40,267 bases of DNA from Spirogloea muscicola (Eukaryota), in NCBI GenBank assembly GCA_009602725.1, contig WELB01000031.1:913483-953749 (forward strand). The letters are read 5' to 3'. A model generated the notes under the pieces. It did not search any database. It was not told where the DNA came from and was given only the letters and a program-made list of their open reading frames with translations. This document shows positions 3,283-40,267 of the stretch, in pieces. The stretch's first letter is position 1. Each line of letters opens with the position of its first letter. A program made the translations under genes and the position numbers.

Positions 3283-3870
3283 GCTAGTGCACGGCCGAGC
3301 CCTCCTCGGGAGGCAGAGCGGTCGGCTGCTGTGGCAGCGGCTGCTGCAGGGCCAGCTGCTGCGGCAGTGGCTGCTGCGGAGCACGCCCAAGAGGGGCACG
3401 CCCACGAGGGGCACGCCCACGAGGGGCTCGCCCAAGCGGGGCTCGCCCACGAGGGGCACGCCCACTAGGGGCACGCCCAAGCGGGGCACGCCCAAGAGGG
3501 GGCACGTCGAGGTGGGAGCCGGAGGCCAGGAGGGCTTGTCGGCCGGGGTCTTGCAACGCGTTGCACTCCTCACTCGGGATCTGGCAGCAGCCCAGTCTAC
3601 GACGGATCCAGCTCAACACCGGCTTCTTGCGAAGATCTGCGCAGAGCAGCGCGCCCTCGTCCGGCAGGCGCTGAAGAGCGGCACATGCAAGAGGTGGATG
3701 CCTCGTTGCATCTGATGCGCAAGAGCAGCGGCAACCCTGAGCATGGACTTGCCAGGGCCCATGAACCCAGACAATTCTCAGGTCACGATGATCGGGGAGG
3801 GTTGCAGCCATGGCTGGATGAAATGGACGAATGGTCCGTGTGCTCCAACACGGACGCGGGGGCGCGCGTG
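3283..3870 (+). repeat. Inverted, diverged copy of the gag N-terminal region
   Basis: Reverse complement of 3955-4484 plus 5298-5340, and lacks the solo-LTR insertion. Confidence 0.9.
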
Positions 3871-3874
3871 CGCC

Positions 3875-5354
3875 TCCAGCCACCGCACTCCTCGGGCTCA
3901 GAGCGCTTCTTCAAAGTGTTCCACCACTCCCGGGGCTCCCCTGAGAGGTAGGTGGCGCGCGCCCCCGCGTCCGTGTTGGAGCACACGAACCATTCGTCCA
4001 TTGCATCCAGCCATGGCTGCAAACCTCCCCGATCATCGTGACCGGAGAATTGTCTGGGTGCATGGGCCCTGGCAAGTCCATGCTCAGGGTTGCCGCTGCT
4101 CTTGCGCATCAAAAGCAACGAGGCATCCACCTCTTGCATGTGCCGCTCTTCGGCGCGCTGCCAGACGAGGAGGGCGCGCTGCTCCGCGCAGATCTTCGCA
4201 AGAAGCCGGTGTTGAGCTGGGTCCGTCGTAGACTGGGCTGCTGCCAGATCCCGAATGAGGAGTGCAACGCGTTGCAAGTCCCCAGCCGACAAGCCCTCCT
4301 GGCCTCCGGCTCCCAGCTCGACGTGCCCCTCTTGGGCGTGCCCCGCTTGGGCGTGCCCCTCGTGGGCGTGCCCCTCGTGGACGAGCCCCGCTTGGGCGTG
4401 CCTCTCGTGGGCGTGCCCCTCGTGGGGGTGCTCCGCAGCCACTGCCGCAGCAGCTGGCCCTACAGCAGCCGCTGCCACAGCAGCTGTAACGTTCCCGCCG
4501 TTACGGGACGCTTAACTTCGAGTTAAGCGCCGCGCGAGGTGTCGCGCGGTGTGACGCGCCTGCTGACGATGTGACGTGCAGGCGCGCCGCCTCCAGCCGA
4601 GGCGGCGAACCTGGTCTCCCAGAGCGGAGCTTCTCGGCATATTCCTGATTCTGCCGTCGTGTCCACAATGACGTGTATGGGACACGTGTCGCGCGCCTGT
4701 GACGCCGCGCGACACCCGTGACTCACTGGTGGCGCCGCAAGCTGGCGCCGCAAGGCGCCGCCGCGAGGCGGCGCCGCAGGGCGCCGCTCGGCGGCGCCGC
4801 AGGGGCGGCCGCCGCCACCAGAAGGGAGCCGCGTGGTCCGCCCTCGCACTAGATTCCCCGTATCGGGCCCGCCTTCCGAAGGTGGGCCCTGAGACGAACC
4901 CCCCAGAAACCCCTGGGGAGGGTGGCACATGAAGCACTATAAGTAGGGCTGAGAGCGGACTCAGAGGGAACTCGGTCAGTCTCAGTGAAGCCCGCGAGAG
5001 AGAGGCGCGGCCCTGCTGCCGCCTGCTGCTGCAGCCCGTCGCCGCATCCCGTCGTCGCGGACTTTCGACGGCTCTCTCTGAGTAAGACACTGGCTGCTCC
5101 CTTGGGGACAGTCGCTGGCCCGTACCTGAGAGGTGAGTCGCTGCCTGTCGGCAGCGCTCCAGGGCGAGACTTCCGCTGCGTATCACACGTGGTGCTTCAC
5201 TGTGCTGGGGGTTTGTCTCTAAACCCCAGCGACCGAAACCAAAAAGGACGTACTGACCCCTGACTGTGCTGTTAAGGGTCAGGGCCGTTACAGCAGCCGA
5301 CCGCTCTGCCTCCCGAGGAGGGCTCGGCCGCGCACTGGAGGTGTGCGATACCAT
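3875..5354 (-). pseudogene. Gag N-terminal half of element A, interrupted by a solo LTR; contains a His-rich 15-bp repeat
   Basis: MVSHTSSARPSPPREAERSA [LTR] ...(EGHAH/EGHAQ)n...PRQFSGHDDRGGLQPWLDAMDEWF...ATYLSGEPREWW, a Gypsy gag capsid-like pattern. Confidence 0.8.
4485..5292 (+). mobile_element. Solo LTR (family B), 808 bp, with 5-bp target-site duplication
   Basis: Termini TGTAACG...CGTTACA, with GCAGC on both flanks (4480-4484 and 5293-5297). Removing it rejoins the gag frame. Confidence 0.92.
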
Positions 5355-20249: not shown

Positions 20250-21350
20250 ACGGCCGCCAAGGTGGCGGAGCTCGTCAACTTCCGGCGGCTGCCCAGGAGG
20301 ACGTGATGGTCATGGCCCAACGCATGAAGCAGCTGCGGCGGGACACTGGGAGGATGACGGAGGTCGACGGAGCGCAGAAGTCCTGGAGGCGCTGGGTGGA
20401 TGCAAGAAGGGCGCCTGGCTGGAGCAGCAGGTCTTCACCGCCTACGGCAGCAACTTCACCATTGACCAGGGGGCCGAGCTCGCGGGCGAGGTGAAGCGCC
20501 ACTTCGTGAGGAAGGCGGTGGAGGTGGCGGTGTAGGCGAAGGGCGAAGTGAGGCGGGCTGCCCAGCCTCGACAGTGGTCGGTGTCCCTGCCCTGGCAGTG
20601 GCGGGAGCCTACCAAGCCGTCCGCAGCTTGGCGGCAGCGGTCGTGCCAGCGGGGCCGGCTCGGGCCATTCAATGTTACACCTGCGGCCAGCCGGGGCATG
20701 TCCGGCGGGACTGACTGCCCAAGGGGGGCCGGCATGCGGCGCCCGCACTGCGGCAAGGCGGGCCACGGCGCGGACGCATGTTGGACCCTCCACCCCGAGC
20801 AGCGGCCGGCGCACCTGCAGGCGCATGCGGCGCTCCAGGCGGCCAGGCCGCGGCGGCTGCACAAGGGAGGGATGGGCAGGCGCCAGCTGCCGCCCAGGCC
20901 AGCTCATCAAGCACCGAGGTGGAGCTGGTGAAGAGAGAGCTGAGGGAGTTGCAGGCCACGATAGTGGCCAAAGCTGCGGTGGCGCAGTGGATCGGAGGCG
21001 GAGAGATGACGAGGCGGCGGACCACCACCTTCGCAACGGCTTGGGGGTAGAGGTGGTGGACGCTGGGATGGCGGGACGGCATGGGCACGGCAGCCGCCAG
21101 CCGACAGGGAGCGCGGATCGCCTGGCGGGCGAGGAACACGGCCGGAGGAGCAGGGCACTTGCTACCCGTTGTCCTTGGCACGGGTGGTGGAGGGGGCGGC
21201 GGACGGCCCAGCGGCGGTCTACTCGCAGCCCGCGGTGGCCCGGGCAGGCGCAGGGTGCGTCACCGCACATCGTTCGACGGCCGCGCTCATGAGCACGCCG
21301 CTGCCGTCATTGGCGGAGGTGGGCTGCTCGGAGGCGATGCTTCGGAAGGC
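20250..21350 (+). pseudogene. Gag-like region with zinc knuckle (DNMT-Gypsy)
   Basis: (C>R)PHCGKAGHGADACWTLHPE at ~20740-20800. The downstream part is repeated at ~23110-23520. Confidence 0.65.
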
Positions 21351-21659
21351 GCTGCAGCAGCACCCTCTGGGCATGCTGGAGGGCGACGTGACGGGTTCGA
21401 GTGAGCCACCTCAGGCCGCGCGGGGGGCGGACACCCCGACCACCTCCACCATCAGTGGGTCTTCCTAAGGGGGCCCCTGCAGGTCGCTTCAACCTGAGCC
21501 TGGGGTGGAGGAAGCAAATGTACTGCCTGACCAGTTGCTGCGGCGTTCCCTGGCACAGAGCCAGCGGCAGTGGCGCAGTTGCATGCACCCAGCACTCGCG
21601 TTTTGGGGGCTGCCCATGCAGGGGGAAGCCCGTCAATTTCCAAGCGGCGGGTGGCGGAG

Positions 21660-21790
21660 CGCGTGAGGGTCATCCCCAATGTGGCGCTGTTGGCGAATGA
21701 AGGTGGCTGTATCACCTTCGACGGGAAGGCGCCACAGCGCGTAAAATTGGATACCGGCGCGCAGCCGGTGCTGCTGGGCCGCAGCATGTC
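21660..21790 (+). pseudogene. Aspartic protease, N-terminal half
   Basis: PQRVKLDTGAQPVLLG (DTG at 21750-21758). The C-terminal half (AQDLQPS...YDVLLG) is at 24165-24365. Confidence 0.8.
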
Positions 21791-22420
21791 GCGACTGCAG
21801 GTCCTGCGCGTGCAGCCTCATTTTACGCGCTGTGGCGCTTTCCCGTTGAAGGTTATACAGCCACCTTCATTCGCCACCAGCGCCACGTTGGGGATGACCC
21901 CACGCGCTCCGCCACCCGCCGCTTGGGAAGCGACGGGCTCCCCCCTGCATGGACAGTTCCCGAGACGCGAGTGCTCGGTGCATGCAACTGCGTCACAGCC
22001 GCCGGCTCCGCAGCAGGGGTTGCCGCAGCAACTGGTGCAGGCAGTACATCCACTTCCTCCACCCCAGGGCATTCAATGCGTGCAGGCTCAGCTTGAGGCG
22101 ACCTGCAGGGGCCCCTTTCGGAAGCCCCATAACTATTAGAGGTGGTCGGATGGTCCGCCCCCTGGGTGGGCTTAGGTGGGTCCACTCGGACCCGCCACGT
22201 CGCCCTCCAGCATGCCCGGAAGGTGCTGCTGCAGCACCTTCCGAGGCATCGCCTCCGCGCAGGCCAACGTTCCAGGTCAGGTTGGCCAGAGGGCCAGAGC
22301 GGCGAGACATCCCCCGGCGGGGTGACCACGCGGGAGTGAGTGGGAGGCGCAGGAGGCGCACGCCAGGCCAGGGCAGGTCAGGCCAGGATAGAACCTTGAC
22401 TTGCGAAGAGATAGGTGCGG

Positions 22421-24165: not shown

Positions 24166-24759
24166 GCAGGACTTGCAGCCGTCCCCTATCGCCATAAAGA
24201 CGGCAACGGGAGGCGTCTCGGTGGGCCTGCGCCAGACCAAGGAGCCTATCTGTATCACCGTCAACAAGGGTGGTCCGGATGAAGTCAGCCAGGACCTTCC
24301 CTGCTTGCTCACGGAGGCTACTTCCTACGACGTGCTCCTTGGGACGGAGTTTTTTAAACCAACGGGGCGAGTATCGACGTATGGGAAGAGGTGGGGAGAT
24401 ATCGCCCCGGGGCTGCATGCGGAGAGGGGCGTCAGGTGGAGTTCGCACTGCAGCTGATAGCTGCAGCGGAGGATGGGGCCGCATTCGCTTGCTACGGAGA
24501 AGCCGTGGGTGGGTAGCGACTTGTGTGACATGCCGCAGGACGAGGCAGCCACCACGTCACTGGCACCCGTGCGGCTGGGAGCAGCTGGCGTTGGCCATAG
24601 GCCCGTGGTGCAAGCGAGGCAGGTGGAAGAGCTGGTGGACCGTGCGTGGAAGCAGCTGCCCCTGGTGGCGCAGGAGTTGCCAACGTGTCCGCCGCCGGTT
24701 GTGCAGCTGCACGGAGAGCCGCTGGTGGATAGCACGGTTATTGAGTGGCCGATCCCAGA

Positions 24760-25695
24760 CGGTGGGGTCGTCCTAGTGGAATTCTTTGCCGGCATCGCCA
24801 CCGGGTTGGCGGCGGTGCTGGCTAACGGCGTGCGCGGCAAGCGGTACGTGTACGTTGAACCAAATCTGGTGGCGCAGGCGGCAGCAGCGCACCACACCCG
24901 GCGGCTTATAGACCAGTACCCGGAGCTGCTGACCTCGGAGGCCATCGAGGGGTACCTCACCACCCTGCCGGCTGACATCCAGCTATTGGGCCATAACACC
25001 TGGGGGGATTGGGACAGGTGGACCCGGTGGTTGCAGATTGGGAGTGCCAAGGGCATTCCAGCGCTGGTGCAGGCCGAGGGTTGGCTGACCACCGCTCGCG
25101 GCTCTTCTGGGAGTTGGAGCGTATTTTGGCGCTGCTGTAGGGGGGGCAGGAGGCCCCCCTGGCATACGTGTTGGAGAACTTGCCGGCAGGCGACGACCGC
25201 CGCACAAAAAAGCGGCGTAACTTCCAGGTTGTAGAGAGCCGCATTGGGCGCGGCGTGCCTCTGAACGCAGCTGCTCTGGGCAGCCGCGCGCACCGGCTGC
25301 GAGTGAAGTGGACCAATATGGCGCAGCCAGAGGTGGTGGCAGCTGCGGCTGCGCTAGTCAAGCGCCCAGCCGGGCTGTTAGTGGCGGACATATTGGACCC
25401 AGGAAGGATGCCTCAGCCAGTGGAGGGGGACGACATCCTCCGTTCGCGCTGTGCAACAAGGTGGGGCAGCCGCGGGCGGCGCTGCCCACGCTGGTAAGCT
25501 ACAGGGCGTCTTATGCATTCAGGAGTGGAGGGCCCGGCATGGTCTGGGACAACACCACGCAGCAACTCGAGGAGCCCCTTGCCGACGAGCGGAAGCGGGC
25601 GTTGGGCTTCCGGACCCGCACAACCGCAGCCCCTGGCTCACCGAGAGGCAGAGCCGGAAGATGTTGGGGCAGGCGATGGATCTGAGGGCTCTCAG
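24760..25695 (+). pseudogene. C5 cytosine DNA methyltransferase domain (DNMT3-like motifs), frameshifted
   Basis: Motif I LVEFFAGIATG; motif IV VD.VVA.WECQGHSSAG (Cys codon 25045-25047); GLADHRSRLFWE; motif VI YVLENL (25174); motif VIII GSRAHRLR..WTN; motif IX ERKRALGF; motif X RKMLGQAMD. About three frameshifts and a TAG at 25138. Confidence 0.9.
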
Positions 25696-27934: not shown

Positions 27935-36298
<8,364 letters not shown>

Positions 36299-36429: not shown

Positions 36430-37530
36430 CTTCAGCTGACTCGGGGCTCCCAAGCTTCTCGGACCCGAGGCTGCTTAGGGGGCGATGCCCGGCTTCAACG
36501 CCGCCGCTTCGCTCGCACAAGTCCTCCGCATGTTGATGTTGCTCACTCGTGGGTACTGAGCTTTCCTCTGCATCGTTTGTGTGTTCTGCAGTATGTTGTA
36601 GTGTAGTCCTTTCTCCGGCTCCTCTTGCTTTGGCTTTGGACATTGTCCATTCTTTTTTGGGCTGGCTTTGCCAGCCCCTCTTTTCTATGGGCGCGCTCTT
36701 CTCTTTCCGCATCCGCCTGGCCGTATCGCTTCAACGCTCCCTTGCCCACGCTGTCCACACGCAAGCAGGCCGTGCCATGGCCGCCGCCTCTGGGTCTCGG
36801 CGGAGTGCCTCTTTCCCTGCAGCGAGCAACTCAGACCTGATGTTGCTCACTCGTGGATACTGAGCTTCCCTCTGCAGCGTCTATGTGTATTGCAGTGTTT
36901 TGTAGTGTAGTCTTTTTCCGGCTCCTCTTTCTTTGGCTTCGGACATTGTCCATTCGTTTTTGGGCTGGCTTTGCCAGCCCCTCTTCTCTATGGGCGAGAA
37001 CTTCCATTTGCTTAGCAGGGGTTACTGAGTGCTTCGTGGCTGCTTCGGTTCTTCTTGTGCTTGTTCTTCTTAGTGCTTCCCCTGGCCCCTTCTCGTACTT
37101 TGTTCGTTCTTTCTTGGCTGGCCTTCTCCAGCCCCTATCCTCAATGGGCGAGCCCTTCTCTCCTAAGCTCCCATCCCCTGCTAGGCTATGCAAGAGCCTG
37201 GGGCCTTTCGCCCTCTCCTGGAAGCGTCGTTCCTATTTCGGCCCGCTCTCTCTTCTGACATTGTACGTCCTTCCGGGCTGGCCTTGCCAGATCTTGCTGG
37301 GCTGGCTTGCTGGGAAGAGCTATTGCCCTTTCCAGGCTCACGCCGCACGTTTGACGGGCAGGCCGCTCGCTTTGTCTGCTGCTTCTGGGTCTCGACGTTG
37401 TGCCATTTCTCCGGCTGCAAGCTGCTACTCTCACTTGCAGCAGCCTCTGGCTTGCGCAGCGGGGTTGCTCTTCCTCCCCTCAGCTCATCTGACTTCCTAC
37501 TGCTGACCCGGGGGTACTAAGAGCGCCCTG
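36430..37530 (+). mobile_element. Head-to-tail array of RLE-element 3' stubs
   Basis: LLTRGY*/LLSRGY* ends at ~36559, 36863, 37028 and 37520, each (except the last) followed by the GGCTGGC..CCAGCCC UTR motif. Confidence 0.75.
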
Positions 37531-37829
37531 TCTGCCTAGCCTGTGGCTCCGTCAAGAAAACCTGTATGCATCTGGCTGGCTTTCACAGCTCTATTGATGT
37601 CAGCAGCCGCATTCTCCGGCTGTATGCTTACAGCACACTCCCTCTAAAGCTTGTGCCTTCCCATCGGCCCGTTTGGAAGTGCTTCTTCTCCATCGGAAGA
37701 GCCTCTTGTTGGAAGTAAGCACTTCCCAAGGGCAAATCTTCCTGGCAAAGGGCTGTGAAAACCTGAAGCTCTTGCGAAGAGCGCGAGGGCTGGAAACCGG
37801 AAGCAGATCCAAGGGCTGTCCAGAAAGTG

Positions 37830-39745
37830 AAGTGGCTCTCCAATGGGGGCAAGGCTGAGCAAGGTTCGAAGAGAAGTGCGCGGCGATAGAGAAGAGGGGC
37901 TGGCAAAGCCAGACCAAAAAAGAATGGACAATGTCCAAAGCCAAAGAAAGAGGAGCCGGAAAAACGACTACAGTACAAAACACTGCAGAACACATAGACG
38001 ATGCAGAGGGAAGCTCAGTACCCACGAGTGAGCAACATCAGGTCTGAATAGCTCGCTGCAGCAGGGAAAGAGGCACTCCGCCGAGACCCAGAGGCGGCGG
38101 CCATAGCACGGCCTGCCCGCGTGTGGACGGCGTGGGCAAGGGAGCGTTGAAGCGATACGGCCGTGCTCGAAGGAGCCTGCCTTCGTCTTGCTGGTGGGCG
38201 AGCTGCGGCGTCGTGCAACGAGCGAGGGAGACCAGCCCCGCCAGGTCCCGCAGCTGCGGACGACTGCAGGGGAGGTGGTGACATCATGAGGCCTCCCCAT
38301 TGGCCAGCAGCCCCCGCCCTGCGCCCCCGTGGCGCGCAGGCCGGGCGCCTTGCCGCCTTGCCGTCCGCCTCCCATTCATACAGCATCTTCCAACCATACA
38401 TTGTTTTGAGATCAGGAGGACATAACGTGCCATCACCTGCTTTAATCATACCAGTGTGCATTTGATCCAAGATGGAAGGCAGTGGTGTGCAAGGCCAGCC
38501 CAGAAAGAATGGACAACGTCCAAAGGGCCGAAAGGCGCCAAAATCACACAAACTATGCAAGAGACTACAGCTAATGGGAGGTTAGTAGCAAGCGCGGCCA
38601 GATTAAGTGGTGGCTGGGAGAGGCCAGCCCAAAAGAATGGACAGTAACGCCGAGTCAGCAGCCGCTAGTCAGAGTAACTTGCGGCTGAACAGAGAGGAAG
38701 TGGCTCTCCCAATGAGGGCAAGGGCTGTGAGAAGCCAGCCCGAAAAGAATTGACAAGGTTCGAAGGGGCCAAATTACGAGCTAAGCAGCGACTGCGGGGC
38801 CTGAAGAGGCTATGGCAGAACTGGGGAGGATGGACACTCAGTAGTTACGAGTGAGGAGCCTCACATCCGACAGACTAGCTGCCGGAAAACTATCCCCCTG
38901 AAAAGAGAGGAGGCGAGCGGTGACCATGTGAATGAAAAGGAGGCCAATCCGGGCCTTACAAACGTCCTGGTAACGGGGCTTTGAGCTGGCTAAGGGGGAC
39001 AGACATATCCTCGAGTCAGCACATACATATTGACAAGCTAAGCTGAGGGGCCAGACCACCGCCATGCAAGCCGTTAACCTGGCCTAAAGCACGCCCTGCA
39101 CGCTGGTGTATCGCGAGTGCCTGGGAGCGCTGCAGACATAATGATAGCCGCATTCTATGGCAAGCAACAATGGCTTGCGGGATGCAAGAGAAACAGCGCT
39201 GCCGAATCGACTGGCGGCTATGAATGCCCTAAGCTACCCGCCCGACTTCGTCGGTGGGCATCGATGTATTGGGCCAGGCGATGGAGGAGGGAAGACCACT
39301 TCATTCCGTAGCCGCCGCATATGTCCTTGGCGCATGGGAAGAAGTGGTCGCCCCGGGGGTGGTCCATACAATGCCTCTCCTTCTTCTCCGCATGATGTGT
39401 CGCCCAACCTGGCACATGCGTCCCCCTGGTTGGGATGCATCAACACGAACGACGTCGAGGAGGATACGAGGCCCACCGCTCCGGGGGGTAACAACCACAT
39501 CCAGACGCCTGATGTAAGGTCTGCCGCGCTTCTGGAGTACCGGCATGATGCCCGGCACCTCCGTGGCCGCATGAAAACCTGCCTCGCAGACAAATCCATA
39601 CATAGCATCTCCCAGGAGATTGTGGGAGGCATTACGTTCACCTCCCTCAATACATCGAAGCATGTGAGTTGCCAGCGAGATCTCGTCCTCTGAACGATGG
39701 CCACTTTCACACTGTCGAATGCCAGGGGGGAGGCCGAGGCGGTTG
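37830..39745 (-). mobile_element. Oppositely oriented RLE-element array ending in the longest copy (zinc-knuckle-like region plus PD-(D/E)xK endonuclease), 5'-truncated
   Basis: RLGLP...QCESGH...HMLRCIEGGERNASHNLL...TEVP...RRLDVVV...ILLDVVRVD, then (shifted) AEKKERH..HPRGDHFFP...LHRLA, and SDVRLLTRNY* at 38838. 37875-38162 is an inverted copy of ~36715-37000. Confidence 0.8.
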
Positions 39746-39862
39746 GCATCGACCCAGCTGAGGGCCGCAGCGGCAATGGCCGCATCTTGGGGTCCACCGG
39801 CCTCACGGGTATGGGGCGTGCGGCCTAAGAGCACCACGTCGCGCGCCGTAAGGGCCATGTCG
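39742..39862 (-). pseudogene. Fragment of a bacterial iron/heme/cobalamin ABC transporter ATPase (HmuV/FecE-like)
   Basis: ALTARDVVLLGRTPH......QDAAIAAAALSWVDA..L matches the family segment (F/L)TVxDVVxLGRxPH...DxxxxxxALxxVD that lies between the Q-loop and the signature motif. Confidence 0.72.
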
Positions 39863-39885
39863 TGGGCATGGAAGGCGAGAAGAAA

Positions 39886-40058
39886 AAGATTGTTGGCGGG
39901 GCGGAGGCCCAAACCGCATCAAGGAGTATGCTGTCATGACCACCCCCAGCGCCTAGGGTAAAATTACCCAAATTATTGGCCCCGCCGTGGACGTGCAGTT
40001 CCCCGCGGGGCACATGCCAGCCCTCAATGCTGCCTTAACCCTGACCAACCCGATCATC
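39886..40058 (+). pseudogene. atpD: Bacterial F1 ATP synthase atpG 3' end, Shine-Dalgarno site and atpD 5' end
   Basis: IVGGAEAQTA (gamma C-terminal motif EIVGGAEA); AAGGAG at 39921-39926; ATG 39936 gives [38 protein letters not shown] (beta N-terminus), with an in-frame TAG at 39954. Confidence 0.85.
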
Positions 40059-40222
40059 GCGCGCCACCACGCAGCTTGGTGGGGCATTGAAGGTCAGCCC
40101 CTTAGCGGCAAAGGTGTTAACGTTGACATTGATGGTAGCGCTGGCCAAAGCCCCGTTGTCATTGCGGGCGGTCACGCGCAAGGGCACCGCGGTAATCTTT
40201 TTCCGCGGCGCGTCGCGGCTTG
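40059..40222 (-). pseudogene. Possible fragment of a bacterial Ig-like/surface protein
   Basis: Open minus frame ...[27 protein letters not shown]..., resembling the terminal strands of PKD/cadherin/Big-type Ig folds. Confidence 0.4.
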
Positions 40223-40224
40223 AG

Positions 40225-40267
40225 TGTAGGGTTCAGGGTTCAGGGTTCAGGGTTGAGGGTTCAGGGT
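40225..40267 (+). repeat. Telomere-like heptamer array (TTCAGGG)n at the window end
   Basis: TGTAGGG (TTCAGGG)3 TTGAGGG TTCAGGG T, with the G-rich strand pointing outward. Confidence 0.75.

Follow-up and report, generated by a model that had tools for sequence, protein, structure and literature searches.

Three bacterial gene shards lie end to end between a host repeat and a telomere-type array in eukaryotic nuclear DNA

Close to one end of a 40,267-nucleotide stretch of eukaryotic nuclear DNA (hereafter the window), a patchwork of about 480 bp (~39737 to ~40208) is composed of three bacterial gene shards, each ~130–180 bp long, which lie end to end: a piece of an ABC ATPase gene (−), an atpG-atpD junction (+) and a piece of an Ig/PKD-like repeat (−). 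The patchwork connects a truncated host repeat on the left to a degenerate-then-regular TTCAGGG array on the right. The presence at a single locus of several donor fragments whose orientations differ is the mark of a complex nuclear insertion. The shards are functionless gene scraps, and no function is predicted for them. We think it probable, with considerable room for doubt, that end joining captured this patchwork at the site of a chromosome break, which telomerase subsequently capped. The shards, their lesions, the truncated repeat and the array are read directly from the sequence, and each mechanistic step is a reconstruction built upon them. The features discussed below are as follows (coordinates are those of the window).

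28860..36000 (limits approximate), minus strand: intron-bearing host gene for an ABCC (MRP) transporter, given for context (Pfam ABC_tran and ABC_membrane)
38900..39737, no strand: host multi-copy repeat DNA, truncated at the left patchwork junction (contigs of four runs, summed depths in the thousands and more)
39737..39864, minus strand: shard 1, internal part of a bacterial gene for an ABC transporter ATPase of iron/heme/cobalamin type (TIGR03873, NF010067)
39889..39921, plus strand: shard 2a, C-terminus of atpG (F1 gamma), IVGGAEAQTA followed by TCA (atpG ends of relatives)
39921..39926, plus strand: Shine-Dalgarno-like AAGGAG, 9 nt before the atpD ATG at 39936 (sequence)
39936..40060, plus strand: shard 2b, N-terminus of atpD (F1 beta), ~41 codons, truncated and with a premature TAG (Pfam, TIGR01039, PDB)
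40065..40208 (edges approximate), minus strand: shard 3, end portion of an Ig/PKD-like repeat with its linker, of the kind seen in large surface proteins of bacteria (protein search)
40220..40267, plus strand: telomere-type array of two degenerate units and then TTCAGGG with one variant, to the window end (TRF period 7, 5.7 copies)

Anatomy of the patchwork and its flanks

A first-pass annotation, made from the sequence alone, had placed a decayed bacterial atpG-atpD junction at 39886..40058. The junction is there, but it is only the middle one of the three shards, and the bacterial DNA extends beyond it on both sides. The landmarks named in that annotation were all recovered. The gamma C-terminal motif IVGGAEA occupies 39889–39909 and is followed by QTA, which takes the motif to 39918, and by TCA at 39919–39921; AAGGAG stands 9 nt before the ATG; and the beta N-terminus carries its premature TAG. 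A six-frame translation of the window contains IVGGAEA a single time. The gamma piece has no Pfam or NCBIfam match and, as it is too short for profile libraries, it was compared with the atpG ends of relatives in a panel of 134 atpD loci (drawn from 151 loci, the remainder having no anchor or being cut). A gamma end is located at most 400 nt upstream of atpD in 95 of the 134 loci, in agreement with the junction proposed earlier, and 42 of these 95 atpG ends contain IVGGAEA exactly. A gamma motif shortly upstream of a Shine-Dalgarno element and a beta start is the arrangement of a bacterial atpG-atpD junction, and the combination of the atpG motif, AAGGAG and the AtpD N-terminus is far beyond chance.

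The proposal that TCA replaces the gamma stop codon stood in substance: all 95 relatives stop 1–4 codons past the motif, which favours TCA as the position at which the gamma stop was probably lost. TCA is, however, the fourth codon after GAEA and not the next one, as had been stated. TCA and the conserved Gly are 35 nt apart, within the range of the relatives (23–220). An intact gamma frame that runs to a TGA overlapping the atpD ATG was considered and found less likely, its 10-residue tail being present in none of the 95 relatives.

The AtpD piece begins with MTTPSA, is interrupted by the TAG at 39954–39956 (codon 7), and retains similarity on to ~40060, near codon 41; it is not a full-length intact frame but a gene scrap. 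The piece passes Pfam PF02874 (21.4 bits versus a cut-off of 20.9) and matches TIGR01039 with E 1.9e-4, where its residues 7–39 align with profile positions 2–34 only. In the PDB, there are 55 matches at E≤1; every one is an F1-ATPase chain, and almost all carry the name beta.

These PDB matches include plastid and mitochondrial beta chains (E 8e-5 to 1e-2), as they would if the shard were a nupt or numt. The organellar chains, however, score no higher than 25.5 bits. Full-length AtpD proteins of the delta type (e.g. L001, L002 and L008) reach 40–45 bits against a PDB maximum of 26.5, and all 134 panel AtpD score above the top PDB domain scores shown, a comparison qualified by the selection of the panel with window-derived patterns. 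Furthermore, neither flanking shard belongs to a gene type of organelles, and atpG is not organelle-encoded in green plants. The earlier assignment to bacterial and not organellar DNA is thus borne out, and we regard an organellar origin or a chance similarity as exceedingly improbable.

Shard 1, whose left edge is approximate and whose extent may reach ~39885, matches TIGR03873 (E 9e-5) and NF010067 (E 2e-4), both far below the family cut-offs. It is 48–59% identical to bacterial ABC ATPase frames in the loci L010 and L151, and its frame has no stop. A protein homologue search with shard 1 and the AtpD shard, both too short as queries, gave no matches. Shard 3, likewise free of stops in its frame, has nine matches at E≤1e-3 among 1.84 billion proteins (E-values that are inflated by repeats), with 35–44% identity over 27–46 residues. 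Seven of the nine carry PKD, He_PIG, bacterial Ig or cadherin-like repeats; the remaining two are a protein without a clear family and an insect receptor that is likely spurious. The ESM Atlas contained no usable match for shard 3. None of the three shards contains a frameshift, and their GC3 is 73–76% throughout (34/46 in shard 1, 32/42 in shard 2b and 33/45 in shard 3).

On the left flank, copies of the host repeat family match the window up to 39725 and then diverge, with part of their continuation resembling window positions 39726–39737. On the right flank, the array has its G-rich strand towards the sequence end and its degenerate edge on the inner side, as a telomere repeat does. Degenerate inner units are common at old chromosome ends. 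The terminal repeat is TTCAGGG and not TTTAGGG. In the accessible parts of the respective sources, TTCAGGG is reported as a telomere motif in Capsicum (10.1101/2024.10.29.617943) and in Genlisea (PMC12133305) and serves only as a probe in PMC3318450; these parts make no mention of it for a streptophyte alga.

Affinity of the bacterial donor

Taxonomic signal comes from shard 2 only. The pattern VDV[QE]F..G..P..N.AL..TNP, derived from the window AtpD without regard to phylum, has nine matches in a collection of 185,579 genomes, seven of which are titled Myxococcota or Bdellovibrionota. In a tree built from 34 AtpD columns without an outgroup, the shard sits on an end branch of 0.95 and no supported set includes it. 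The earlier suggestion of a delta-proteobacterial or myxobacterial AtpD thus draws support from a signature and not from a clade: the motif matches point to an AtpD of Myxococcota/Bdellovibrionota type.

The other two of the nine matches, metagenome-assembled genome records titled Klebsiella pneumoniae and Fredinandcohnia (L002 and L006, respectively), carry a Myxococcota-type atpG-atpD. As L006 groups with Myxococcota rows in the tree (support 98/96) and the class of the L002 genome overlaps strongly with a Myxococcota-centred genome draw, both titles are likely wrong.

In common with the atp operons of Myxococcota, Bdellovibrionota and Desulfobacterota (L001–L175), the window has IVGGAEA, a short Shine-Dalgarno spacer, VDVxFPxG and TNP; unlike them, it consists of a junction of only ~175 bp, has a premature stop and lacks a gamma stop where one is usual. 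The closest AtpD relatives share 24 of 34 residues (71%), and in sets of 107, 301 and 38 genomes the identity was at most 66%. A DNA search of 401 genomes returned 45 weak matches, the best of which (85% over 52 nt) is in atpD. Among 60 plasmid and chromid records from other phyla, the 40 listed are 38–58% identical and mostly end before TNP, and eight of the 60, outside the 40 listed, are 60–80% identical at their best place. A plasmid blastn search produced chance-level pieces only; a strict AtpD pattern had no matches in metagenomes and a looser one at least 120; and the eight viral-contig pattern matches include no AtpD. The genome, plasmid, metagenome and viral-contig searches thus yielded no close donor, and for this reason the changes have no polarity and the junction microhomologies are unreadable; end-joining insertions of the complex kind are characterised by blunt junctions or by microhomology of 1–7 bp. 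Six loci of a Bdellovibrionota-centred draw (L165, L166, L170–L172 and L175) have a native GPAVDV in AtpD, like the window; the class of this group (38 genomes) contains no closer match to the window AtpD.

From the likeness of GC3 across the shards, which is a matter of base composition only, and from the AtpD signature, which gives the type, we infer that one donor of Myxococcota/Bdellovibrionota type may have supplied all three. A real chromosome end could instead have been assembled stepwise or from several donors, by repeated captures, by a mobile element, or by a move from another locus. The confinement of taxonomic signal to shard 2 would suit such a history, as would a match of the ABC shard in just one of the 301 genomes of the Myxococcota-centred draw (E≤1e-3), the scatter of the shard 3 matches, and the abundance of mobile-element remains in the window, among which Pfam identifies a Ty3/Gypsy chromovirus. 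The similar GC3 of the shards argues against it, as do the lack of a second copy of the shards within the window and, in the accessible text of PMC6215612, the formation of organellar mosaics without recurrent insertion. We therefore consider a stepwise or multi-donor history unlikely.

Decay, sequencing error and the route of entry

One premature stop, one stop that was probably lost and a CpG-to-TpG tilt give modest support to decay of the shards in the nucleus. The probability of finding one stop in 414 shard bases is 0.03–0.06 at 0.5–1% random error (short-read rates) and 0.26–0.45 at 5–10% divergence, while a raw noisy long read is disfavoured by the lack of frameshifts in any shard. At synonymous third positions of the shards, T is found at 16 of 39 positions before G and at 10 of 57 before other bases (Fisher P 0.011). 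This difference of 0.23 falls between that of bacterial open reading frames (−0.04 ± 0.15) and that of host exons (0.30). Against 5000 matched draws from 226 bacterial open reading frames, most of them atp genes, the tilt has a P of 0.04 on the sense strand and 0.05 on both strands, these being the two test variants tried; there is no excess on the other strand. The tilt fits partial CpG deamination at a borderline level, and the decay may have been driven by methylation.

The AtpD profile score is matched or undercut in only one of 148 distinct relatives. Four window residues seemed unique at first, a count reached by 0–2 of 129 relatives, and were taken as proof of decay. As the panel grew, A17 was found to be native in 6 of 24 further loci and M27 in 1 of 24, leaving A32 and I40 unseen among 148 relatives, and 23 of the 148 reach that count; the argument was consequently rejected. 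The earlier view that this is DNA decaying in the host and not fresh contamination has moderate support, from the stop and from the TpG tilt with its borderline P; the residue argument has mostly failed.

The principal alternative is an assembly chimera. Gap filling, contig extension or library ligation would then have attached contaminant bacterial reads and a telomere read to the end of a scaffold, and the TAG would stem from a read error. That three genes form a patchwork abutting a telomere repeat raises the chance of such an artefact. Bacteria are frequent in xenic algal cultures, the window was scaffolded, as shown by a gap of 167 N inside it, the left junction lies within a high-copy repeat, and the shards are near short-read length, a point that also counts directly against capture. 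The assembled contigs of four runs (one sample of one study) do not cover 39747–40235 in either alignment, and among the contigs listed, a filtered set, none bridges any of the four junctions; the nuclear linkage of the shards thus stands on a single assembly. Exact single-copy pieces in these contigs (37560–37915, 38133–38512 and 39153–39300) indicate that the runs carry the window genotype or a very close one. As the contigs were filtered and host stretches also show dips (e.g. 38236–38327 in three runs), we weigh the coverage hole itself neither for nor against either reading. A chimera, however, requires four false joins in 480 bp, a stop codon that is improbable at short-read error rates in addition to the lost gamma stop, and a host-ward TpG tilt that is unexpected in fresh bacterial reads. 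We take it to be a serious contender, although a distinctly less probable one than capture.

Capture at a chromosome break draws on the presence of three unlinked gene types within 480 bp in the orientations −, +, −, on the end of the repeat-family match at 39725 adjoining shard 1, and on the degenerate array units directly after shard 3. In this sequence-based model, a break within the host repeat would have created a free chromosome end; bacterial DNA fragments, which likely came from a single cell, would have been joined to this end and to one another. By analogy with complex numts and nupts, concatenation may have occurred before or during repair. Telomerase would then have added repeats to form a new telomere, and the scraps would have drifted without function afterwards.

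Relation to known insertions and the host setting

Nuclear inserts of Wolbachia and other endosymbionts are decaying and functionless and mostly consist of long, collinear stretches from a symbiont that lives inside the cell. The patchwork shares with them the presence of decaying, functionless bacterial DNA in a eukaryotic chromosome, but its pieces are tiny, rearranged and of Myxococcota/Bdellovibrionota type. Members of these phyla are mainly known as free-living predators. In bdelloid rotifers, horizontally acquired DNA is concentrated near chromosome ends. Acquired DNA is also located near chromosome ends in Wickerhamiella/Starmerella yeasts, in which the ends have been proposed as entry points of foreign genes, according to the accessible text of PMC13376923. 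The patchwork resembles both cases in having foreign bacterial DNA at a chromosome end; however, the yeast and rotifer cases are whole, often expressed genes, whereas the patchwork comprises scraps of 40–50 codons with no possible product.

Complex numts and nupts, including mosaic ‘numins’, are described in the accessible text of Portugez et al. 2018 (PMC6215612) as fragments concatenated before or during their end-joining capture into a double-strand break. The patchwork parallels them in having several donor fragments from differing places and in differing orientations at one nuclear locus, and differs from them in that its donor is a non-organelle bacterium and that it ends at a telomere-type array. 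The patchwork works like a complex numt or nupt but, its AtpD donor being bacterial and neither plastid nor mitochondrial, is not one.

As a rule, gene transfers from bacteria to streptophyte algae are deduced from genes that are already old and finished, and the entry step is seldom seen. The accessible literature that was covered contained no report of a telomere-capped bacterial patchwork in a green alga. If real, this one small instance in one assembly would be a rare base-level snapshot of non-organelle bacterial DNA entering a green-lineage nucleus by fragmentation, concatenation, joining to a broken end and telomere capping. If a chimera, it instead cautions about the ends of scaffolds in genomes of xenic algae. 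It is a long shot that this alga regularly mends its broken chromosome ends with DNA scraps from predatory or attached bacteria, that telomerase then caps them, and that many ends are alike; were it true, a bacterium-to-streptophyte route of gene transfer would be visible at its earliest, pre-functional stage.

The window has a GC content of ~60% and many internal repeats. Among the best 120 of 1076 matches, its ABCC gene is 72–75% identical to Zygnematophyceae and 67–71% to land plants, from which the host is likely a streptophyte alga. The ABCC exons (28860–36000, −) show a strong synonymous TpG-over-CpG tilt of 0.30, which suggests CG methylation in gene bodies. Five window open reading frames were absent from the protein collection by exact look-up, one being queried without its first Met. 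Within the Gypsy-like region, an open reading frame at 24473–25234 (+) has no Pfam match at E≤0.01; its segment EFFAGI..GL recalls the N-terminus of a DNA cytosine methyltransferase. On the chromosome-end side of the ABCC gene, 36534–38162 holds two copies of a very high-copy repeat in inverted orientation, 92–95% alike, with a summed contig depth of up to millions. Two long inverted duplications, at 3328–4484 and 21320–22266, are made of mobile-element sequence; their arms are 79–96% complementary, with inner-arm spacings of 87 and 72 nt, respectively.
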